64,000 nucleotides of DNA from a virus. Both the position numbers and the translations under genes were made by a program. A model generated the notes under the pieces. That model saw only the letters and a program-made list of their open reading frames with translations, was not told where the DNA came from and ran no database searches. How positions within the stretch are numbered: the stretch's first letter is position 1; each line of letters opens with the position of its first letter. The stretch is from IMG/VR virus record IMGVR_UViG_3300020421_001669, positions 1 to 64,000 of that record. One strand, 5' to 3'. This document shows, piece by piece, positions 7,063 through 19,816 of the stretch.

Positions 7063-8117
7063 TGTACTGGTCAAAAGGTGCCGACATAGAAAGTGGTAGT
7101 CAGCATATAACCGAATTTGAAAGAATTTTTGTTAAAGAACTAATTGCTCAAAAACCAGATGACTGTGTTCTGGTAAATTCTACATGGTTTTCAAAACCAG
7201 AAAATGTTGATGATTTAAAAAAATGGTTTGAAGATAAAGGAACCCCCAGAGTTTTATTGTACTCTGGTATGGATTGGGAAAACTCCACATGCACAGAATC
7301 TACGCAAGAAGCACATAGGTTCCTTAATAAGAATTATGAAGTCATCAATATAGGGAATACTGGCACTGGGCATTACTTTAGTTTTTGGTTGTCCTTTATA
7401 CACAAACACCTTGACACCTTCTTTGATTCGTGTTATACTGAGACACCTAACATAAAAAAATACTTTATGTGTTTGAATCATCAACCGCATAAACACAGAA
7501 TAGAGTTTTTAAATCTTTTAAATGAAGTTGGTATATTTCACCACGGTACTATTTCTGCTATAGTTCCTCATGAAGAATATAAGTTTGATAATCCTATCAT
7601 TCTAAAAGAAAATAGACCACCTCATATTATGGAAAAATCTCATGAATGGGAAAGAGTAAATGACAACCACTTAGCAAACGATATCATTTCTCTGGGAGAC
7701 CCTAATTATTGGAACTCTCATTTTTGCACCGTTGTAACTGAAAGTGTAATGCATAGTGATGTGTTTTTAAGTGAGAAAACATTTAAACCATTAATAGGAC
7801 TTAGACCTTTTATTATTTTGGGTGATGGTTTGTTATATGATAAACTAAAGGAACTCAAGTTTGATACATTTGAAGACTTGTTTCCAAGAATACATCGTAA
7901 AGGACAGGATGAATATTGGCGGGGAGGCGTACCTCGTGGTGAACGCATAAATAACGCCGTACAAGACCTTAAAAATCTTCAAGAGAAATATGGAGATGCG
8001 GATAGTCTAATTACCTTATATAATAGTTTGGAAGATAGATTGATGTATAATAGACAGAGGGTTTTAGAGGTGATTAATGAGAATTACAACAAGATAATGG
8101 AGATTAGTAAGTTATGA
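7062..8117 (+). CDS. Putative glycosyltransferase-like protein, paralog of the preceding gene
   Basis: LNHQPHKHR, VTES..LSEKTFKPLIGLRPF. Confidence 0.5.
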   Translation: MYWSKGADIESGSQHITEFERIFVKELIAQKPDDCVLVNSTWFSKPENVDDLKKWFEDKGTPRVLLYSGMDWENSTCTESTQEAHRFLNKNYEVINIGNTGTGHYFSFWLSFIHKHLDTFFDSCYTETPNIKKYFMCLNHQPHKHRIEFLNLLNEVGIFHHGTISAIVPHEEYKFDNPIILKENRPPHIMEKSHEWERVNDNHLANDIISLGDPNYWNSHFCTVVTESVMHSDVFLSEKTFKPLIGLRPFIILGDGLLYDKLKELKFDTFEDLFPRIHRKGQDEYWRGGVPRGERINNAVQDLKNLQEKYGDADSLITLYNSLEDRLMYNRQRVLEVINENYNKIMEISKL

Positions 8118-9355
8118 CCAACATTGCATTTATTGGATTTGGTAAATTAGGTAAACCTTGTGCTGAGGTGATTGCACAAAAAGGACACGATGTAAGCGTT
8201 TATGATACACGCGAAGTAGAAAGTGAATATTGTAATGTTAAAGATACAATAGAAGAGGTTGTCAAAGATAGGTTATTTGTATTTGTCGCAGTGCCAACAC
8301 CACATGACCCATTGTACGATGGTTCAGAACCTACTTACCACTTACCACCAAAAGATTTTAATTACGATACTGTTAAAGAAGTAATCGCAGAAGCAAATAA
8401 ACATATGAATGAGAAGCAGACATTGGTTCTTATTAGTACTGTATTGCCTGGCACTGTAAGAAGAGAGTTTGTTCCTTTGATTACAAATACTAAGTTTGTT
8501 TACAATCCTTACTTGATTGCCATGGGTACAGTCGCGTGGGATATGGTAAACCCAGAGATGGTAATGATAGGTACAGAAAACGGAGAAGAATCATTAGAGG
8601 CACATAGTCTCATACACTTCTATAATGAGATAATGGAAAACGAACCGCGTTATGAAGTTGGTACTTGGGATGAGTGCGAATGTATTAAGGTGTTTTATAA
8701 TACCTTTATTAGTGCAAAGATTGGTCTTGTAAACATGATACAAGATGTCGCAGAGAGACAGGGTAATATTAATGTAGATGTAGTGACAAATGCATTAAAA
8801 AAGAGTTCTCAGAGAATCATGGGCCCCAGTTATATGAAATCTGGTATGGGTGATGGTGGCGCGTGTCATCCAAGAGATAATATTGCACTTAGATACATGG
8901 CACAAGAATTAAATCTGGGGTATGACTTGTTTGCTGAAATAATGAAGGCACGAGACATACAAGCAGAAAACATGGCAGTTGCCATTTTAAAACACGGAAA
9001 TAAAATTGGATTTACATCTGACTCATATAAACCAGATGTTCCATATACAAATGGTAGTTACAGTTTATTAGTTCAACACTATGTAAAAGAACACGGTGGA
9101 TTCATTACACCTCTTTCTTCACACCCACATGTGATTGTAAAGGTACATGAGTCTGATTTAATAGAAACCGATTTTGAGGGGGTCGTATTTGACCCTTGGA
9201 GAAGTCATGTGGGAATAAATGTTGTACACTACGGAGATACGAGAAATGAAAATTTTAAAGAAAAACAAGCAACTGCACAAATTCATGAAAGCTGGGAGAC
9301 TAACCAAAGTGATCAAGAAGGCGTTGTCGGAGGTCTCGGAGAAGACCGACTCTAA
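8114..9355 (+). CDS. ugd: UDP-glucose/GDP-mannose 6-dehydrogenase family
   Basis: GFGKLG Rossmann motif, VPTP, STVLPGT, YNP, catalytic GGACHPRD. Confidence 0.9.
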   Translation: MTNIAFIGFGKLGKPCAEVIAQKGHDVSVYDTREVESEYCNVKDTIEEVVKDRLFVFVAVPTPHDPLYDGSEPTYHLPPKDFNYDTVKEVIAEANKHMNEKQTLVLISTVLPGTVRREFVPLITNTKFVYNPYLIAMGTVAWDMVNPEMVMIGTENGEESLEAHSLIHFYNEIMENEPRYEVGTWDECECIKVFYNTFISAKIGLVNMIQDVAERQGNINVDVVTNALKKSSQRIMGPSYMKSGMGDGGACHPRDNIALRYMAQELNLGYDLFAEIMKARDIQAENMAVAILKHGNKIGFTSDSYKPDVPYTNGSYSLLVQHYVKEHGGFITPLSSHPHVIVKVHESDLIETDFEGVVFDPWRSHVGINVVHYGDTRNENFKEKQATAQIHESWETNQSDQEGVVGGLGEDRL

Positions 9356-9458
9356 ACTTGATGAGATAGAACAGAAAGAAAAAGAAAAAAGAAAAGAAGA
9401 AGAACTCCAACGCAAGTTAGAAAAAATGCGAGAGAGAGACCCCTTTATCTATGACTAG
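9246..9458 (+). CDS. Small charged hypothetical protein ending RDPFIYD
   Basis: ATG at 9246; stop overlaps the next start; overlaps the ugd 3' end. Confidence 0.65.
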   Translation: MKILKKNKQLHKFMKAGRLTKVIKKALSEVSEKTDSKLDEIEQKEKEKRKEEELQRKLEKMRERDPFIYD

Positions 9459-10260
9459 ACTTGTATCATATGGATGTTCCCACACATCTGGTGCAGAATT
9501 AGCTGACCATATAATGTTGGGGACAGACATAGAAACTGTTGATAAATTAAAATCTAAGTATATCTCTGGTGGTGATACACTACCGCAAGCTTGGAAAAAG
9601 ATTTGGAACGAATATGGATTTTCGTTTGACCCATATTCTAAATTTGATGACATCTTTCGTAGTGTTTCTTTAAAAGAAATACCGCATTTAGAAAGTGGCG
9701 AAGATATATGTAGGTCTTTAACATGGGTAAGGTATCTAACAGAACTACGCGGTCACACACATTACATAAATCGTGGTTTCGGTGGTGGTTCATTAGAACT
9801 TTGTGTATATTTATTGGAAGGGGATATCATTGACGGTATTATTGATACTAAGAAAGATGAAGTTATTGTTCAAGTTCCTCACCCCTATAGATGGATGGAA
9901 TTAGATTTTGATGGGATGCACAAAACCATTACTCCATATGAACAGGGAAACTACTGGAATATGACTTGGAGTTATTATCAATTATTAAGACACATAAAAC
10001 TGTTGGGTGTTAAATATTTTTTTATAGAAAAACCAACATGGAGACTAAGAAATGAAATTAGGGAAGACAATTTTGACTCTTGGTCAAATCCAATCAATAA
10101 CAATAAAGAACTTTTTGCGAAATATTGGAACTGGATTGGAGAAAATGCGATACCAACAAACGATGAGTTTTACTCTAATCCTAAACACGCTGGTGAACAT
10201 TACTACACAGAAACACATAAATTGATGGCGGAAAATTTAAATGATAAGTTGGGGAATTAG
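9451..10260 (+). CDS. SGNH/GDSL-like protein
   Basis: N-terminal YGCSHTSG, NRGFGGGS, C-terminal His. Confidence 0.55.
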   Translation: MTRLVSYGCSHTSGAELADHIMLGTDIETVDKLKSKYISGGDTLPQAWKKIWNEYGFSFDPYSKFDDIFRSVSLKEIPHLESGEDICRSLTWVRYLTELRGHTHYINRGFGGGSLELCVYLLEGDIIDGIIDTKKDEVIVQVPHPYRWMELDFDGMHKTITPYEQGNYWNMTWSYYQLLRHIKLLGVKYFFIEKPTWRLRNEIREDNFDSWSNPINNNKELFAKYWNWIGENAIPTNDEFYSNPKHAGEHYYTETHKLMAENLNDKLGN

Positions 10261-11656
10261 TGCTTGTACACATGACGCTTCTTTAGCGGTTGTTAAAGAT
10301 GATGAGATATTGTTTGCCTCTCATAGTGAGAGATTTAGCGGTATAAAAAATGATGCATTTCTTAATCCAGAAATTATCACGGAAGCAAAAAAGTATGGTG
10401 AACCAGATTATGTTTATTGGTATGAAAATCCTTGGTTAAAATGGACAAGAAAAAAATACGCGGGCCAACAAAGACCGTGGGTAAGTCCTAAAAAATATTT
10501 AAAACACTTTGGAATAAAATCACCCTATTACACTACTCATCACAAAGCACATGCAGCTGCTGGGTATTACACTTCACCTTTTAATAGTTCAGCAGTATTG
10601 GTTATTGATGCTATTGGTGAATGGACTACTACATCCATATGGAAAAATATGGAGAAAAAGTGGGCTGTAAGTTATCCAATATCATTGGGATTGTTTTATT
10701 CCGCGATGACAGATAGAATTGGATTGAAGGCAAATGAAGATGAGTATATTCTTATGGGTATGTCTGCTTATGGTGACCCAGATAGATTTTATGATGATAT
10801 TAAAGAATTACTAAAAGAGAATCTACATAGAGGTTGTAAGTGGTGGAATCCACTATTAGAGGAAAAAGATTATTTCGATGTTGCAGCTGCCACGCAAAAA
10901 ATATACGAAGAACATTTTGTGTCATTGTTAGAAAGAACTAAAGATATGACAGGTGAGGACAATCTAGTTTTCATGGGTGGTTGTGCTTTAAACTGTTTGG
11001 CAAATAGACTTATTCCAGAGCATTTTGATAATCATTGGATAATGCCGAATCCTGGCGATGCTGGTTCTTCTATTGGTGCGATTGCATCTAAAGAATGTAT
11101 AAAACTAAAATGGAAAACTCCGTATCTTGGATATAATATAGAAGGTAAATATCCAACCAACAATCTATTCAAAGAATTGGTAGATAATAAGATAGTTGGT
11201 GTTGCAAATGGGAGAGCTGAATTTGGCCCAAGAGCATTGGGTAATAGAAGTTTACTTGCAGACCCGAAAGGTTCTAAAATGAAAGACCTTGTAAACAAAA
11301 TAAAAAAGAGACAAGAGTTTAGACCATTTGCACCTGTAGTATTAGAATCAGAAGTACACAAGTACTTTGATGTACCAAGGGGATTCCAATCACCATATAT
11401 GCAACATGTGGTTAAATGTAAACAACCAGAAGACTTTCCTGCCATCGTACATAAAGATGGAACTAGTAGGGTACAAACAGTAAACTCAGAACAACACAGT
11501 GGATTATCTCAGTTATTAAGAAAGTGGAAAAAACACAGTGGACACCCGATACTACTAAATACCAGCTTAAATATTAAAGGTGAACCAATCGTCAACGATG
11601 AAAAAGACGCGATTAGGTTTGAAAAAAAGTATGGAGTTAAAGTGTGCGTGAGATAA
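10241..11656 (+). CDS. Carbamoyltransferase (NodU/CmcH family)
   Basis: HDAS, ERFS, HHKAHA, DAIGE, GGCALN, EFGPRALGNRS, RPFAP, LNTSLN. Confidence 0.95.
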   Translation: MISWGISACTHDASLAVVKDDEILFASHSERFSGIKNDAFLNPEIITEAKKYGEPDYVYWYENPWLKWTRKKYAGQQRPWVSPKKYLKHFGIKSPYYTTHHKAHAAAGYYTSPFNSSAVLVIDAIGEWTTTSIWKNMEKKWAVSYPISLGLFYSAMTDRIGLKANEDEYILMGMSAYGDPDRFYDDIKELLKENLHRGCKWWNPLLEEKDYFDVAAATQKIYEEHFVSLLERTKDMTGEDNLVFMGGCALNCLANRLIPEHFDNHWIMPNPGDAGSSIGAIASKECIKLKWKTPYLGYNIEGKYPTNNLFKELVDNKIVGVANGRAEFGPRALGNRSLLADPKGSKMKDLVNKIKKRQEFRPFAPVVLESEVHKYFDVPRGFQSPYMQHVVKCKQPEDFPAIVHKDGTSRVQTVNSEQHSGLSQLLRKWKKHSGHPILLNTSLNIKGEPIVNDEKDAIRFEKKYGVKVCVR

Positions 11657-12803: not shown

Positions 12804-12874
12804 GGAGAGACCATGTAATAGAAATCTTTATGATGGATATCAATTTTTTAACCAACCATCTGGAGAGATACCAA

Positions 12875-13636
12875 ATGCCAAGACGCAAAACGAACCTTCA
12901 AGTAATCGAAAATTTAAATTCCGATGTGAAAAGGGTGAAAGAGAAATCTACCTTAAAAATGCGTATAGAGGATTTAATTACAGTCGATGCAATCACAGAA
13001 ACCCAAGGACAATTTTTTGCAGAGTATAAAAAAGATTGTAAAGCAATGTTACTACATGGGTGTGCTGGTACAGGAAAAACATACATTGCCCTGTATCGAG
13101 CATTAGAGGAGGTTTTACAAAGAGGAAACCCATACAAGAAAGTAGTCGTTATTCGGTCAGCAGTCCCATCAAGAGAGATAGGTCACTTGCCGGGCGATGA
13201 AACAGAAAAGACACAAGTATACATGCAACCATATATTGACATGTGTTCCGATTTATTCCCAAAGAAAACACAAGCATTCCAAAGACTAATTGAACAAAAA
13301 TATGTAGAGTGGATGATTACATCTTTTGTAAGGGGAATCACACTGGACAATTCAATTATAATAGTCGATGAATGTCAAAATATGAACGACATGGAGATAA
13401 ATTCAATCATAACTCGCGTAGGACACAATAGTAAGATACTATTCTGTGGAGATTTCCGTCAAACAGACCTATATAAAAGAGGTGATTTGAGTGGATTGCA
13501 GAAATTCATGGTAATTGCTGAAAATATGCCTTCATTTAGGACTTTAGAGTTTGATACAGACGATATTGTTAGGTCTGACCTAGTAAAAGAGTACTTAGTG
13601 GCGAGAATGTCATACGAAGAACAATATGGTACTTGA
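12875..13636 (+). CDS. phoH: PhoH-like ATPase
   Basis: GCAGTGKT Walker A, IGHLPG, RGITL, DECQN, GDFRQTDL, DIVRS; SD GGAG before ATG 12875. Confidence 0.95.
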   Translation: MPRRKTNLQVIENLNSDVKRVKEKSTLKMRIEDLITVDAITETQGQFFAEYKKDCKAMLLHGCAGTGKTYIALYRALEEVLQRGNPYKKVVVIRSAVPSREIGHLPGDETEKTQVYMQPYIDMCSDLFPKKTQAFQRLIEQKYVEWMITSFVRGITLDNSIIIVDECQNMNDMEINSIITRVGHNSKILFCGDFRQTDLYKRGDLSGLQKFMVIAENMPSFRTLEFDTDDIVRSDLVKEYLVARMSYEEQYGT

Positions 13637-13688: not shown

Positions 13689-14348
13689 ATGTTTACACAT
13701 ATTGACAAAAAGCACGATTTCCCCCAGTTAATGAGGGAGAATTTTGAAGGAAAACGGACATATGTAACGGAAAATGGTGATAGATACCCTTCTATCACCA
13801 CCGTTCTTGGATATAAGATAAAACCAGCCATAAAAGCATGGAGAAAGAAGGTAGGAGAACAGGCAGCGAACAAAATATCGCGTCAATCGTCTGTTCGAGG
13901 AACCAAAATTCATGGTATTTGTGAGGATTATCTTAATAACAAGGAACTTGATACTAAAATGTTGTCCTTTGTAGAGGAAGACATGTTCGATAACATGCGC
14001 CTTTACCTTGATAAGATAGATAACATACACGCGATTGAACAATTTTTGTACAGCGACCATCTAAGACTTGCTGGTCAGGCTGATTGCATCGCTGAATTTG
14101 AGGGAAAATTGTCAATCATCGACTTTAAGACATCCGCAAAACTCAAAAAGAAGTCATATATCAAGAATTATTTCGCTCAATGTGCTGGTTATGCCATCAT
14201 GTTTGAGGAAAGAACTGGTATTCCAATAGACCAAAGTGTAATTATTATAGGTGTACAAGACGAAGAACCACAACTTTTTGTAGAACATCGTGACAATTAC
14301 ACAGATTACCTACTAGAATGTAGAGATTTGTATGAAAATAACGCTTGA
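13689..14348 (+). CDS. PD-(D/E)XK exonuclease of T4-like phages
   Basis: YPSITTVL, RGTKIH, AGQADC, IIDFKTS, QCAGY. Confidence 0.85.
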   Translation: MFTHIDKKHDFPQLMRENFEGKRTYVTENGDRYPSITTVLGYKIKPAIKAWRKKVGEQAANKISRQSSVRGTKIHGICEDYLNNKELDTKMLSFVEEDMFDNMRLYLDKIDNIHAIEQFLYSDHLRLAGQADCIAEFEGKLSIIDFKTSAKLKKKSYIKNYFAQCAGYAIMFEERTGIPIDQSVIIIGVQDEEPQLFVEHRDNYTDYLLECRDLYENNA

Positions 14349-14378
14349 CATTTGGTTGGTAAGCTGGTATTATAAATA
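14345..14378 (+). promoter_or_regulatory. Overlapping sigma70 promoter and T4 late promoter driving the tmRNA
   Basis: TTGACA(14345)-17 nt-TATTAT(14368), overlapped by TATAAATA(14371-14378). Confidence 0.75.
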
Positions 14379-14380
14379 AA

Positions 14381-14640
14381 TTAACTCGTTGAAACAAGTC
14401 AAACGGTTAACAGGACGAGGGTGCAAATCCCTCCGCCTCCACCAATTAATCCTTATAGACTCGACTAAGGGGGCGAATAGGATCGACTGGGACTTATTAG
14501 AGGAGTGGAGAGTTCGGAAATGGAGCTGCCGTAAGTGCGACAAAACTATAAACGCAGAAGAAGATACTGCTTATGAGGATTACGCTTTAGCGGCGTAAAA
14601 TCGCTCGGGGTTCGGGGACGCCTATCAACAGAAGTCCCCA
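14381..14640 (+). ncRNA. ssrA: Circularly permuted (two-piece) tmRNA
   Basis: T-arm GAGGG-TGCAAAT-CCCTC plus CGCCTCC-A-CCA (to 14444) precedes GGGGGCG (14469); these pair as a 7 bp acceptor stem with G3:U. Tag ORF 14554-14598 encodes AEEDTAYEDYALAA*. Outer ends are approximate. Confidence 0.92.
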
Positions 14641-14645
14641 TTTTT
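14614..14645 (+). terminator. Hairpin/terminator closing the tmRNA coding piece
   Basis: GGGGAC...GTCCCC followed by ATTTTT. Confidence 0.6.
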
Positions 14646-14670
14646 ATCTCATTAAGAGAAGGAGGAAGAT

Positions 14671-14781
14671 ATGTGGTTAATTACAGGACTCATTATCGGA
14701 GTCGTAGTTGGAGCATGGATTAAAGACCGAAAATCTTGGTTAGATTTTCTTGACTCACCATTTGATAAGCTGCCGTTTTAA
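14671..14781 (+). CDS. 36 aa small membrane protein (MWLITGLIIGVVVGAWIKDRKSWLDFLDSPFDKLPF)
   Basis: Strong SD AGGAGG, hydrophobic N-terminal helix; absent from the ORF track. Confidence 0.75.
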   Translation: MWLITGLIIGVVVGAWIKDRKSWLDFLDSPFDKLPF

Positions 14782-14798
14782 CAAACTAACACTTTCAA

Positions 14799-15353
14799 AT
14801 GTACAGTTGGTTTTTGACCGCCGTATGTGCTGTATCACTTTGTTTGATACCAGTACAAAATGCGAATGACTACTTCATCGAAGAAGACAGGGTTTTAGTT
14901 GTTGACGAAGCAATAATCTTTATCGATAAAGAAATATCTTGTCTTGCAGTTAACATTTATCATGAAGCAAGGGGCGAAAGCAAAGAAGGTAAACTTGCAG
15001 TTGCTTTCGTAACCTTGAATCGTGTTAAAAGTAATGCATATCCAGACACAGTTTGTGGCGTTGTTTATCAAGGATACCACAAACCGTCTTGGAGAGATGA
15101 AACAAAAATGGTTCCAATCAGGCATCGTTGTCAGTTTAGTTGGTACTGTGATGGTAAACCCGACATAGTACGCGATTTCAACATATACGAAGAAATCATT
15201 AAACTGTCAATAGATGTTTGGGAAGATAGGTATGAAGATAATACAAATGGAAGTTTGTTTTATCATGCCGATTATGTGGAACCGACATGGGCGCAACACA
15301 TGGCGAAAACAGTAAAGATAGATAGACATATATTCTATACCGCGAGTTATTAA
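14799..15353 (+). CDS. Cell wall hydrolase (SleB/Hydrolase_2)
   Basis: CLAVNIYHEARGE, VTLNRV, CQFSWYCDG, HIFY; hydrophobic N-terminus. Confidence 0.9.
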   Translation: MYSWFLTAVCAVSLCLIPVQNANDYFIEEDRVLVVDEAIIFIDKEISCLAVNIYHEARGESKEGKLAVAFVTLNRVKSNAYPDTVCGVVYQGYHKPSWRDETKMVPIRHRCQFSWYCDGKPDIVRDFNIYEEIIKLSIDVWEDRYEDNTNGSLFYHADYVEPTWAQHMAKTVKIDRHIFYTASY

Positions 15354-16273
15354 TGACAAACAAGACTCATAATTTTATCGTGACAGGTGGATGTGGATTT
15401 ATTGGTTCACATTTAGTAGAAGCATTACTCCTACATGGACAGAATGTTCTTGTCATAGATGATATGAGAACTGGGAAGACTAAACTCGATAGTAAGAATG
15501 TAGAGTACTTACATCAAGATGTTGCATCAGCAATTCCAGTTGGAAAGTTTGACGCAATATTTCACCTAGCCGCCACGCCCAGAATTAGGTTATCTCAGAA
15601 AGACCCATTCGGGACAATCACAAATAACTTTAATTCAACAATGGTTGTTGCTGAGTATGCAAGAAGAGAACGAATTCCTTTGTTTTTCGCTGCTTCTTCT
15701 AGTACTCAGTTTCTTCATCATCAAGATAATCCTTATACTTTTTCTAAATGTGTAAATGAAGAAGTCTTACAACTCTATAATAAAATATACGATTTAGAAT
15801 ATCACATGTTGTATTTCTATAATGTATATGGCCCGCGAGAAGCAGACTACGGTGAATATAGTACTGTAGTTAGAGCATTTAAAAAATGCGTAGAAGAGGG
15901 AACCCCTCTCAGAGTTTTTGGTAGTGGTAGAAAACAGAGAGACTTTACTCACATACACGATGCCATAGATGGTATACTAAAATTGCTAACAACAAAAAGT
16001 AAACCAAGAAATGTTCATTTAGGTTCTGGTAATCCAGTAAGTATATTGGATGTCGCAAAGGCATTTGACCATGATTTCATTCATGAATTCGATAAGCCTG
16101 GCGAGGCAGAAATAACAGAATGTGAAAAACCATATATTGAACCTTCATATGATGTTATAGCATATATCAAAAAATGGAAACAAGATTTTGAAGAAGAACA
16201 AATATTACATAATGTAAACAAAGATTTAAGAAAAGTGGAAGAAAAATATGCCAAAATTGATAGTGGACAATGA
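15353..16273 (+). CDS. NAD-dependent epimerase/dehydratase
   Basis: TGGCGFIGSH, HLAA, YTFSK, NVYGP, RDFTH. Confidence 0.92.
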   Translation: MTNKTHNFIVTGGCGFIGSHLVEALLLHGQNVLVIDDMRTGKTKLDSKNVEYLHQDVASAIPVGKFDAIFHLAATPRIRLSQKDPFGTITNNFNSTMVVAEYARRERIPLFFAASSSTQFLHHQDNPYTFSKCVNEEVLQLYNKIYDLEYHMLYFYNVYGPREADYGEYSTVVRAFKKCVEEGTPLRVFGSGRKQRDFTHIHDAIDGILKLLTTKSKPRNVHLGSGNPVSILDVAKAFDHDFIHEFDKPGEAEITECEKPYIEPSYDVIAYIKKWKQDFEEEQILHNVNKDLRKVEEKYAKIDSGQ

Positions 16274-16535
16274 CAAAGAAGAAGAAAAGGTTAGTGATGT
16301 ATTCATGGTCACTAAAGAGTTTCATACATCAGCCGAGTTCTCACAACACATAGAAAAGAAAGCTGTTCAGGCGGGAAATTATATTGATGTTCTTGTTGAA
16401 TATTGTGGCAGAAATGAAATCGAAATAGAGAGTGTTAAGAAATTACTTACAGCATCTCTAAAGGAAAAAATCAAAGCAGAAGCAATTGGACTTAACTTAG
16501 TTAAGGGACAGAAGTCTTGTAAGTTACCTATATGA
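16248..16535 (+). CDS. gp33: Late transcription coactivator gp33
   Basis: FSQHIE..YID..LKEKIKAEA..LN..KLPI; position before gp59/gp32. Confidence 0.8.
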   Translation: MPKLIVDNDKEEEKVSDVFMVTKEFHTSAEFSQHIEKKAVQAGNYIDVLVEYCGRNEIEIESVKKLLTASLKEKIKAEAIGLNLVKGQKSCKLPI

Positions 16536-17113
16536 TTGAACCTTATGAAGTTTATAAACTATACCTAGCGATTAAACTTCATTTCACTACTAAGTCATAT
16601 GATGTAGTGAAGTATAAGGGTAAGGTTAGAGTAAAACCAGAGACTTTTCGTAAAAGAAAAGATATGGTATCTATAAAGAAACTTGCCAGAGACTATAAAC
16701 GCGAGGAAATAATAGATTTTTTAGTTGCTAATTTTGTATCTGGAGAACGATGGGGTGGATTGTTTGATATACAGGCATCCAAGAGATACGAGGATTGGAA
16801 GATAAAAAAGAATCAGAGAGAATATCTCTTCAAAAGAGATGTCTCAAAGATACTACTAGAGATGGAAAAACAAAAAGTTGACGCTTTTTTTGAAAAAAAT
16901 GGAAAACAGGGCTTGACTTTTCGTCTGTACTTTGGTAGAATGATCGAAATTGAAACTCTTGTTATATTAGATAAGATTTTCGATTTTGTAGAAGAAACGG
17001 ATGATATTTTACTAGAAGATGTTGTACTGCTAGTTAAAAAATATCGACCTTTCATAAGGGTGACCGACTCAATGAAGGAAGTCGCCAAAACACTTACTCA
17101 AAAACCTGTATAA
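16532..17113 (+). CDS. gp59: Helicase loader gp59
   Basis: YKLYLAIKLHFT..YD..KY.GK, FLVANF, KKYRPF. Confidence 0.85.
   Translation: MIEPYEVYKLYLAIKLHFTTKSYDVVKYKGKVRVKPETFRKRKDMVSIKKLARDYKREEIIDFLVANFVSGERWGGLFDIQASKRYEDWKIKKNQREYLFKRDVSKILLEMEKQKVDAFFEKNGKQGLTFRLYFGRMIEIETLVILDKIFDFVEETDDILLEDVVLLVKKYRPFIRVTDSMKEVAKTLTQKPV
16913..16941 (+). promoter_or_regulatory. sigma70-type promoter inside gp59
   Basis: TTGACT-17 nt-TAGAAT with extended -10 TG. Confidence 0.55.
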
Positions 17114-17328: not shown

Positions 17329-18234
17329 ATGTCGTTTAATACTATAGAAGAGCTACGCAAGTCGCGTGGCAACATGGACACTCTCATGTCACAAGTTGAG
17401 AAGATGTCTACAACCACCACCGAGTCTAATGACGATGGTAGGGAATGGAAACCAACTGTTGACCAAGCTGGCAATGGGTATGCAGTCATCCGATTTTTGC
17501 CCCCAGCAAAAGGTGAAGACCAATATTGGGCACGACTCTGGACTCATGGTTTTCAAGGGCCTACTGGAAAGTGGTACATCGAAAACTCTCTCACAACTCT
17601 AGGACAACAAGACCCTGTTTCAGAATTGAACAGTGAATTGTGGAATAGTGGTGTTGAGTCTAACAAAGACATTGCTCGTAAACAAAAGCGTAGACAGTCT
17701 TTTTACTCCAACATTCTTGTTGTGAAAGACCCATCGAATCCAGAAAATGAAGGTAATGTATACCTTTATCGTTATGGCAAAAAAATCTTCGACAAAATTC
17801 AAGACTTGTTAAAGCCAGAATTTGAAGATGAAACTCCAGTAAATCCTTTTGATTTCTGGGACGGCAGAAACTTCAAACTGAAGATTCGTCAAGTTGAGGG
17901 ATTCCGAAACTATGACAAGTCGGAGTTTGAGTCTGCTCCATCACCAGTAGCTGCTGATGATGAAATTGAGGCAATTTGGGCGAAACAATACTCTCTTGCA
18001 GAGATTGTAGACCCATCTAACTTCAAGTCTTATGAAGACCTTAAATCCAAATTGGATATGGTTCTTCAAGGTGCAAGCAAGGTTCCTACTGCTTCAACTG
18101 TTGCAGCCCAGACAGGCGACATTGAAGATGACTTGTTTGTTAACCAACAATCTGAAACTACGGTAGTCTCCAATGGTTCAGATAGTGATGACGATGCAAT
18201 GTCGTACTTTGCAAAACTTGCTGACGATTCCTAA
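17329..18234 (+). CDS. gp32: Single-stranded DNA-binding protein gp32
   Basis: GNGYAVIRFLP, WYIENS, YGKKIFDKI, NYDKSEF, acidic tail with SYFAKLA. Confidence 0.97.
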   Translation: MSFNTIEELRKSRGNMDTLMSQVEKMSTTTTESNDDGREWKPTVDQAGNGYAVIRFLPPAKGEDQYWARLWTHGFQGPTGKWYIENSLTTLGQQDPVSELNSELWNSGVESNKDIARKQKRRQSFYSNILVVKDPSNPENEGNVYLYRYGKKIFDKIQDLLKPEFEDETPVNPFDFWDGRNFKLKIRQVEGFRNYDKSEFESAPSPVAADDEIEAIWAKQYSLAEIVDPSNFKSYEDLKSKLDMVLQGASKVPTASTVAAQTGDIEDDLFVNQQSETTVVSNGSDSDDDAMSYFAKLADDS

Positions 18235-18286: not shown

Positions 18287-19816
18287 ATGGCAGAAATTAT
18301 GGATGGAATTATATTTGGCGGACAATTAGAAGACTTTGCTGGTTCAATACACAAAGAAGATTCTAAAAACATTTCAATGAGAAGGTCTTCTGGTGGTCAC
18401 AAGATTGCCACCTTTTTGAGGCAGAATGGTTATGAAATTGATGTAGTAGATTATGTCCATCGCTGGAAAATAGAACAACTCAAACAATATCTAAAACCAA
18501 TCGCAAAGGATTGTAAGTTCTTTGGATTTGGTTCTACATTCTTTTTAGACAGTCCAGTTGTCAAAGAACTGGTTGCGTGGTTAAAAGAAGAGTATCCTAA
18601 TGTACCGCGTGTCGCTGGTAGTCAAAATGATAGCATGCGTAGTTTGGACATGGATTGGTATGTCTATGGTTATGGTGAAAATGCCATGTTAGAACTACTC
18701 AAACATTTTGATGGTGGGCCAGAACCCATACACTACAATAAAGTAATTAACTGTTATGTAAATTACAAATCATTTCCAAAAGAAGATTTAACAGTATCCT
18801 ATCAAGAAAGAGATTTTGTCAATCCACGCGAAATCATGATGATAGAGTTTGCCCGTGGGTGTAAGTTTAAATGTAAGTTTTGTAGTTTCCCGATACTAGG
18901 TGTTAAGGGGGATTACTCTCGTACAGCACAAAGCGTATATGATGAGATGTCAGAAAACTATGACAAGTGGGGTATAGAACACTATCTTGTTATTGACGAA
19001 ACATTTAATGATAGTTCAGAGAAAATAGAAAAGTTTGCTAATGCAATAGAGAAACTTCCTTTCCAACCAAAGATGACCGCATTTATTCGTGGTGACTTAC
19101 TTGCTTCGCGTCCTAGAGATTGGGACAATCTAATTAAGATGGGAATTACATCTCATTTCTATGGTATTGAAAGTATGAACCACAAGGCAGCTAAATCGGT
19201 TGGTAAGGGGATGAATACTGGTAGGATACAAGATGGTCTATTAGAAGTAAAAGAATACTTTCAGACAAATGCTGGATACTACAAGGGTCTAATATCCTTG
19301 ATTGCTGGTTTGCCTTATGAGACTATTGATAGTTTACGCGAGACAGTTAGATGGTGTTCTGAATACTGGTCTGACCAGAGTTATCATATGAACATATTGA
19401 TGATTAAGTTATTAGGTAAACCATCTCTCAATCATAACTCAGAATTTGATTTGAATTGGAAAGATTACGGTTACAGGGAGTCCCAGTTCCCCAAAGATGA
19501 TATAAAGTGGGATATGAGTATCAATCCGTTCTATAAGTTCCTCTATGAGTATGTGGCGACCTCTGGCGAGTACATTATGTGGGAAAATGACCATACTAAC
19601 ATGTATGATTGTTTTAAATTCTGCGTAGAAGAGTTTAGTCAAGCTAAGTTGAAGAACGCATTAGACCCATTTATGTATGATAAGTTCTTTATTGACCCAA
19701 CTGTAAAGTGGAGTGATTTTGCTACTGAGACACATATGGAAAGGAGAGAATCCCATATCTTAGAACATGTGGATGGATATATTCAGTCTAAACTTAATCT
19801 TGCATCAAGAGTTTAG
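18287..19816 (+). CDS. B12-binding-type (class B) radical SAM protein
   Basis: EFARGCKFKCKFC, DETFND, GIES, IAGLPYET; N-terminal cobalamin-binding-like region with GYGE. Confidence 0.8.
   Translation: MAEIMDGIIFGGQLEDFAGSIHKEDSKNISMRRSSGGHKIATFLRQNGYEIDVVDYVHRWKIEQLKQYLKPIAKDCKFFGFGSTFFLDSPVVKELVAWLKEEYPNVPRVAGSQNDSMRSLDMDWYVYGYGENAMLELLKHFDGGPEPIHYNKVINCYVNYKSFPKEDLTVSYQERDFVNPREIMMIEFARGCKFKCKFCSFPILGVKGDYSRTAQSVYDEMSENYDKWGIEHYLVIDETFNDSSEKIEKFANAIEKLPFQPKMTAFIRGDLLASRPRDWDNLIKMGITSHFYGIESMNHKAAKSVGKGMNTGRIQDGLLEVKEYFQTNAGYYKGLISLIAGLPYETIDSLRETVRWCSEYWSDQSYHMNILMIKLLGKPSLNHNSEFDLNWKDYGYRESQFPKDDIKWDMSINPFYKFLYEYVATSGEYIMWENDHTNMYDCFKFCVEEFSQAKLKNALDPFMYDKFFIDPTVKWSDFATETHMERRESHILEHVDGYIQSKLNLASRV

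Follow-up and report, generated by a model that had tools for sequence, protein, structure and literature searches.

Does the short interval between an exonuclease gene and a cell-wall hydrolase gene in this viral genome hold a complete two-piece tmRNA gene, and, if so, to which lineage does it belong and what would a phage do with it? The DNA analysed (the window, 64,000 nt) is the first 64 kb of IMGVR_UViG_3300020421_001669, a 161,406-bp IMG/VR virus record that is 91% complete (CheckV). The source virus is a marine, lytic, T4-like myophage, whose gp32 has its best protein matches in Methylophilales phage Melnitz (54% identity), Pelagibacter phage HTVC008M (53%) and cyanomyophages (about 52%). 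No psbA was found in the record, which is a weak argument against a cyanophage, and no integrase gene was found in the record, so that the tmRNA gene is not an attachment-site remnant. The RNA genes of the whole phage, as called by ARAGORN, are the two-piece tmRNA and a single tRNA. The latter is a tRNA-Arg(TCT) (G000:C1:144761-144837), and the same specificity is found in Melnitz and the pelagimyophages (PMC9004378).

The gene was recognized by two Rfam models in a cmscan of the 64-kb window: tmRNA_permuted (RF04321; 103.2 bits against a cut-off of 47, E 5e-19, positions 14383-14598) and alpha_tmRNA (RF01849; 95.4 bits against a cut-off of 50, E 1e-24, positions 14341-14642), the latter being the top family within its Rfam clan. 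ARAGORN called no tmRNA in the window at its default threshold; at a 90% threshold (-ps90) it placed a 'Permuted' tmRNA at 14353-14689, its tag frame at 14554-14598 reading AEEDTAYEDYALAA. The default miss is therefore a threshold effect and not a sign that the gene is absent. A preliminary description of this DNA had proposed a permuted two-piece tmRNA with its own tag ending in LAA, to be checked with ARAGORN and Infernal. The proposal is borne out by both Rfam models, with scores far beyond chance, and by the ARAGORN call at 90%, which returned the same peptide. The gene order is permuted, with the encoded CCA ending at 14444, upstream of both the start of the acceptor 5' strand (14469) and the tag frame, and the T arm, the acceptor strands with their G3:U pair, the discriminator A, the CCA, the 24-nt segment and the GCA codon all lie where the preliminary description had placed them (Table 1). 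The window gene is a complete ssrA that encodes an alpha-type two-piece tmRNA with the family's hallmarks in sequence and structure.

The ARAGORN result extends beyond this gene. In a set of 120 phage two-piece tmRNA stretches (the window, the same stretch again as L001, and the 118 IMG/VR loci L006-L123 among the matches listed), the default settings missed 38, among them the window and the two relatives closest to it, and the 90% threshold recovered only part of these 38. Because the defaults miss many two-piece tmRNAs, phage surveys that are based on ARAGORN undercount them. BLAST against cultured phages gave no nucleotide match for the tmRNA and the 14 kb around it, and relatives were reached by protein search and pattern search instead.

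Table 1. Features of the tmRNA gene and of its neighbourhood, in window positions.
Feature	Position	Strand	Details and basis
PhoH gene	12830-13636		
PD-(D/E)XK exonuclease gene	13689-14348		upstream of the tmRNA
Predicted sigma-70-type promoter	14345-14373	+	-35 TTGACA 14345-50, 17-nt spacer, TG-extended -10 TATTAT 14368-73; 11 of 12 consensus matches
Putative T4 late-promoter-type motif	14371-14378	+	TATAAATA, overlaps the -10 box; motif match
Acceptor piece (3' half of the tRNA-like domain)	14383-14444	+	cmscan alignment, covariation
P2 5' strands	14383-87, 14406-08, 14411-13	+	AACUC, GUU and CAG; cmscan alignment
T arm	14417-33	+	GAGGG 14417-21, loop UGCAAAU, CCCUC 14429-33
Acceptor 3' strand, discriminator, CCA	14434-44	+	CGCCUCC 14434-40; A 14441; encoded CCA 14442-44
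Intervening segment	14445-14468	+	24 nt; too short for a gene; removal in maturation predicted
Coding piece	14469-14645	+	cmscan alignment, covariation
Acceptor 5' strand	14469-75	+	GGGGGCG; 7 bp with the acceptor 3' strand, G3:U
D-loop analogue	within 14469-14645	+	AAUAGGAUCGA; in the coding piece
P2 3' strands	14487-89, 14491-93, 14510-14	+	CUG, GAC and GAGUU
Hairpin CGG(A)/(G)CCG	14515-18 with 14528-31	+	fits the Rfam model
Tag frame	14554-14598	+	resume codon GCA 14554, peptide AEEDTAYEDYALAA, stop TAA 14596-98; ARAGORN -ps90
3' hairpin	14614-14647	+	GGGGAC 14614-19 / GUCCCC 14634-39, loop motif AACAGAA 14627-33, then U-run; covariation
69-aa ORF	14389-14598	+	extends the tag frame upstream across the RNA gene; TTG 14389 start; not a gene
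36-codon membrane-type ORF	14671-14781	+	strong ribosome-binding site AAGGAGG; directly 3' of the tmRNA hairpin, before the hydrolase gene
SleB-type cell-wall hydrolase gene	14799-15353	+	downstream of the tmRNA
Sugar epimerase gene (NAD-dependent)	15353-16273	+	between the hydrolase gene and gp33
gp33	16248-16535		downstream of the tmRNA
gp59 helicase loader gene	16532-17113		
gp32	17329-18234		

The structure was examined in 60 non-redundant related phage genes, with base pairs counted directly on their MAFFT alignment (A1, 542 columns). For the Rfam-type structure, 89% of the cells are paired, compared with 69% in shuffles and at most 53% in slid controls on the same alignment, and its covariation score of 0.437 (0.141 in shuffles) was reached by none of 500 shuffles. 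The acceptor stem is 100% paired, with G3:U invariant in all 60 relatives; the T stem is also 100% paired, with four of its five pairs covarying; and the P2 helices are about 94% paired, with ten of 11 pairs covarying. For the outer P2 helix (AACUC with GAGUU), the figures are 94% and five of five. The window tmRNA departs from canonical pairing in one middle P2 sub-helix of the Rfam model, and in the region of pseudoknot PK1, upstream of the resume codon, where the MAFFT alignment is poor, 52-70% of the cells are paired. A single-sequence MFE fold of positions 14383-14645 gave z = -0.5 and did not recover the acceptor stem, the method being uninformative for tmRNA here.

The pseudoknot-like element of the preliminary description stood in part. 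Its CGG/CCG half fits the Rfam model, whereas its AGTTC/GAGCT half fails the covariation test and was rejected (28.9% of cells paired across the 60 relatives, under the shuffled level); this stem is wrong because AGTT lies within the GAGUU strand that is the P2 partner of AACUC. In the related locus L065, the A-G mismatch of the CGG(A)/(G)CCG hairpin is replaced by a U:A pair. A pairing of GC 14525-26 with GC 14537-38, seen by eye, is a tentative candidate for the second PK1 stem.

The stem of the 3' hairpin covaries, and its loop motif AACAGAA is at least 90% conserved in the relatives and is also part of the alphaproteobacterial consensus; this conservation suggests a candidate binding site rather than a plain terminator. 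The hairpin was not called in a simple terminator scan because its loop is 14 nt long, and the U-run behind it indicates that the transcript probably ends there. The Rfam structure line leaves this region (14614-14639; A1 columns 393-434) unpaired.

An exact-pattern scan of IMG/VR for the tmRNA core yielded at least 118 viral contigs. To the clade of the window belong nine copies in IMG/VR, 86-96% identical, and all but one of the nine metagenome contigs that were matched by the scan, several of them from Tara Oceans; the exception (L131) carries the tag of the outgroup. All clade members have a spacer of exactly 24 nt. The tag of the 18 clade copies compared (IMG/VR and metagenomes) follows the pattern AE[EDN][DN]TAYE[DG]YALAA, in which changes are limited to positions 3, 4 and 9, and the frame, the stop and the C-terminal YALAA are kept. 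Selection has maintained both the fold and the tag frame in many related phages.

The position of the gene is as constant as its fold. Among the at least 118 loci listed, the exonuclease gene lies directly upstream on the same strand in 51 of the 56 loci with an exonuclease homologue, and gp33 lies downstream in all 54 loci with a gp33 homologue. The same short matches in cyanomyophages bear the annotations of both the exonuclease gene and gp33, so that the two appear to be direct neighbours there, and the tmRNA therefore seems to sit at that junction in its marine T4-like branch. No tmRNA is annotated after the exonuclease gene of phage C48C1, the best exonuclease match. The lower the gp32 identity of a relative, the lower also the identity of its tmRNA to that of the window, and descent of the gene appears to have been vertical within the phage lineage. 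In this T4-like lineage it is an old, positionally fixed part of the replication/late-transcription module and not a recent pick-up. In one related viral contig (L010, 1167-1245), the Rfam 'freshwater-2' RNA motif was found about 500 nt upstream of the tmRNA (67.3 bits against a cut-off of 49.9).

For the expression of the gene, the promoter hexamers and the late-promoter-type motif (Table 1) are conserved in the clade relatives and the spacer sequence between the hexamers diverges, which is the pattern expected of a working promoter. The late motif TATAAATA occurs in all clade members and, among the matches listed, no more than 30 nt upstream of the acceptor piece in 64 of 116 related viral loci; in the window there are 14 copies of it, with 7.4 expected.

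Two-piece tmRNAs of phages are already on record. The phage tmRNA list of 2014 contains one-piece forms only (PMC4131195), and the preliminary description still held this view, which is out of date: Buchholz et al. 2022 (PMC9004378) described a two-piece tmRNA in Melnitz and, in their Table S1, 53 unique two-piece tmRNAs, 50 of which come from marine or aquatic phages, in a set of 18,146 public phage genomes. Their list includes HTVC008M and Mosig (both permuted), Caulobacter phiCbK-like phages, cyanophages and roseophages, and permuted tmRNAs were reported for 17 of 47 Melnitz-like contigs. The window tmRNA is of this published kind, and Melnitz and HTVC008M were already known to have this gene at the corresponding genome position. 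The published kind thus gains one example and no new principle, and another abundant open-ocean phage group, represented in Tara Oceans and other marine metagenome contigs, is seen to carry its own ribosome-rescue RNA.

Melnitz and HTVC008M gave one RF04321 match each (113.4 and 90.6 bits). Melnitz, likewise a marine T4-like myophage without an SmpB of its own, has the same alpha-type two-piece tmRNA at the same place, after the PD-(D/E)XK exonuclease gene and before gp33; it differs in its tag, in its spacer (142 nt, compared with 24 nt) and in a glutamine riboswitch (RF01739, 52.8 bits) immediately behind the tmRNA. No match to this riboswitch was found in four clade loci, nor, with E values of up to 10 allowed, in the window. 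In Melnitz (MZ577097.1; L004 1584-1748), a 54-codon ATG frame opens in the spacer and runs into the coding piece. HTVC008M shares the RNA family and the exonuclease-tmRNA-gp33 order, but has a spacer of 49 nt and the tag ANFNEYALAA (window, 24 nt and AEEDTAYEDYALAA), and the host of HTVC008M and Mosig is SAR11. In both phages gp33 follows the tmRNA more directly, whereas the hydrolase and epimerase genes lie between the two in the window.

The alphaproteobacterial two-piece tmRNA (RF01849), shown to work in Caulobacter according to the citation of Keiler, Shapiro and Williams 2000 in PMC9004378, shares with the window tmRNA the permuted order, the G3:U acceptor stem, the P2 helices that join the pieces, a tag ending in AA and the AACAGAA hairpin after the tag. 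The window copy differs in that it lies on a phage without smpB, in its T loop UGCAAAU, which is off the alpha consensus, and in the linker after the acceptor stem, which is 1 nt shorter than in that consensus. A phage tmRNA without a phage SmpB is also found in mycobacteriophages of the Bxz1 group, in Bacillus phage G and in DS6A (PMC4131195); these are unrelated phages of soil hosts, with a one-piece form (Bxz1 group, phage G) or a tRNA-like domain only (DS6A), whereas the form in the window is two-piece.

Taken as a whole, the gene is very probably the ssrA of a lytic marine T4-like myophage and would provide a two-piece tmRNA that works via host factors. The absence of smpB from the window, mentioned in the preliminary description, extends to the 161-kb record (91% complete by CheckV), in which no PF01668 match was found; ClpP and RF-1/ArfB domains were searched for in the whole phage, and none were found. 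Lacking SmpB, ClpP and ArfB genes, the phage must draw on host factors, and activity would depend on compatibility with the SmpB, AlaRS and RNase P of the host. Published phage tmRNAs, too, are assumed to use host SmpB.

A single precursor of about 265 nt would be transcribed from the sigma-70-type early promoter and the overlapping T4-late-type promoter, with its end at the 3' hairpin and U-run. By analogy with the two-piece system of Caulobacter, host RNase P would cut before G14469 and 3' trimming would expose the CCA at 14444, leaving a 62-nt acceptor piece and a coding piece of about 177 nt held together by the acceptor stem and P2. Host AlaRS would charge the molecule via G3:U70 and the discriminator A73, and host SmpB and EF-Tu would bring it to ribosomes stalled on broken mRNAs, where translation would resume at GCA 14554 and append AEEDTAYEDYALAA, the LAA end of which would mark the product for host ClpXP-type proteolysis. 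The benefit to the phage is the least certain step; likely, ribosome rescue would continue after host transcription shut-off while mRNAs decay, much as phage tRNAs sustain translation. The replacement of a host tmRNA cleaved by defence nucleases, also raised in the preliminary description, would be a conjectural use.

The host itself is poorly indicated by the RNA. The preliminary description had taken the permuted form as a hint at an alphaproteobacterial host, and the RNA is indeed of the alpha type by Rfam; yet Melnitz, which has the orthologue at the same position, infects OM43 (Methylophilales), a non-alphaproteobacterium (PMC9004378). As the host of Melnitz lies outside the Alphaproteobacteria and the gene looks vertically inherited, the alpha-type RNA says little on the present host, and the hint is weak. 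The type of a tmRNA is an unsafe predictor of the host of a phage.

The tag invites a further reading. The nearest outgroup (L116 and L131) has the usual tag ANDNFAYDDYALAA, so that the acidic N-terminal half of the tag appears as a novelty of the clade, with YALAA unchanged. In E. coli and Caulobacter, the N-terminal tag half is the part that is read by the SspB adaptor. The tmRNA lineage may have evolved for long inside phages, distinct from host copies, with the N-terminal half of the tag rebuilt (ANDNF to AEEDT, net acidic) and rescued proteins routed differently from those of the host. We consider this unlikely; if true, the phage would reroute rescued proteins, e.g. to ClpX-dependent, adaptor-independent decay, and would not merely top up the tmRNA of the host.

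The preferred reading, rescue with host factors, has also to be weighed against the view that the RNA acts as a decoy or inhibitor, which sequesters SmpB of the host or acts as a competitor of its tmRNA and so blocks trans-translation in the host. A model for such a role is the tRNA-like-domain-only tmRNA of DS6A, as a similar molecule strongly inhibits tmRNA, perhaps by titrating SmpB (PMC4131195, PMC11915505), and the window phage brings no SmpB of its own. The tag frame, the resume context, the stop and the C-terminal YALAA, however, are conserved in the clade and in the wider phage family; a pure decoy would not need a tag frame, and its conservation renders this role quite improbable.

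A change in the fate of tagged proteins, beyond the maintenance of rescue, would fit the difference between the outgroup tag and the clade pattern, and selective tagging has been proposed (PMC9004378). N-terminal tag residues vary widely among bacterial tmRNAs, however, and the C-terminal degradation signal is unchanged in the window tag, so that we give little credence to such a change.

It is hardly credible that the gene is useless to the phage, be it a host gene captured passively or in decay, or a chimera produced in assembly. Phages can gain fragments of host tmRNA genes by imprecise excision, as is discussed in PMC9004378, but dozens of phage contigs and two cultured phages have the gene at one fixed locus, compensatory changes are seen in the helices, the promoter is conserved and the record contains no integrase. 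The nine metagenome contigs with a scan-matched tmRNA all agree in their phage gene order, and in none of them are the surroundings bacterial. Exact patterns for the T loop of the clade (UGCRAWW) and for its short linker, two clade-specific features, had 0 matches in 185,579 bacterial species genomes in a search with no positive control, a null that is only suggestive as a sign of the distinctness of the clade.

A real protein gene at the 69-aa ORF has virtually no chance of being the explanation, for although the frame is open in the window and its closest relatives, it lies entirely within the 103-bit RNA gene, the open frame upstream of the tag ranges from 14 to 71 codons in relatives (median about 26), substitutions in the region track base pairing and not codons, and no PHROG family was matched; the preliminary description was right to dismiss this ORF as an artefact.

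Other genes are found close to the tmRNA. The hydrolase and epimerase genes (14799-16273, + strand) lie between the tmRNA and gp33 only in the clade and in the near relatives L116, L016, L020 and L112. Genes for sugar metabolism and modification are present nearby on the + strand (8114-11656, 15353-16273 and 18287-19816), comprising a UDP-glucose dehydrogenase, a Nol-type carbamoyltransferase, the epimerase and a radical SAM protein. The 36-codon ORF, for which no PHROG family match was obtained, encodes a product with a hydrophobic N-terminus and a charged tail, and is kept as a protein in all nine IMG/VR clade copies (83-94% identity, conservative changes); it may yield a small membrane protein that acts together with the hydrolase, e.g. 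a holin-like or anchor peptide.
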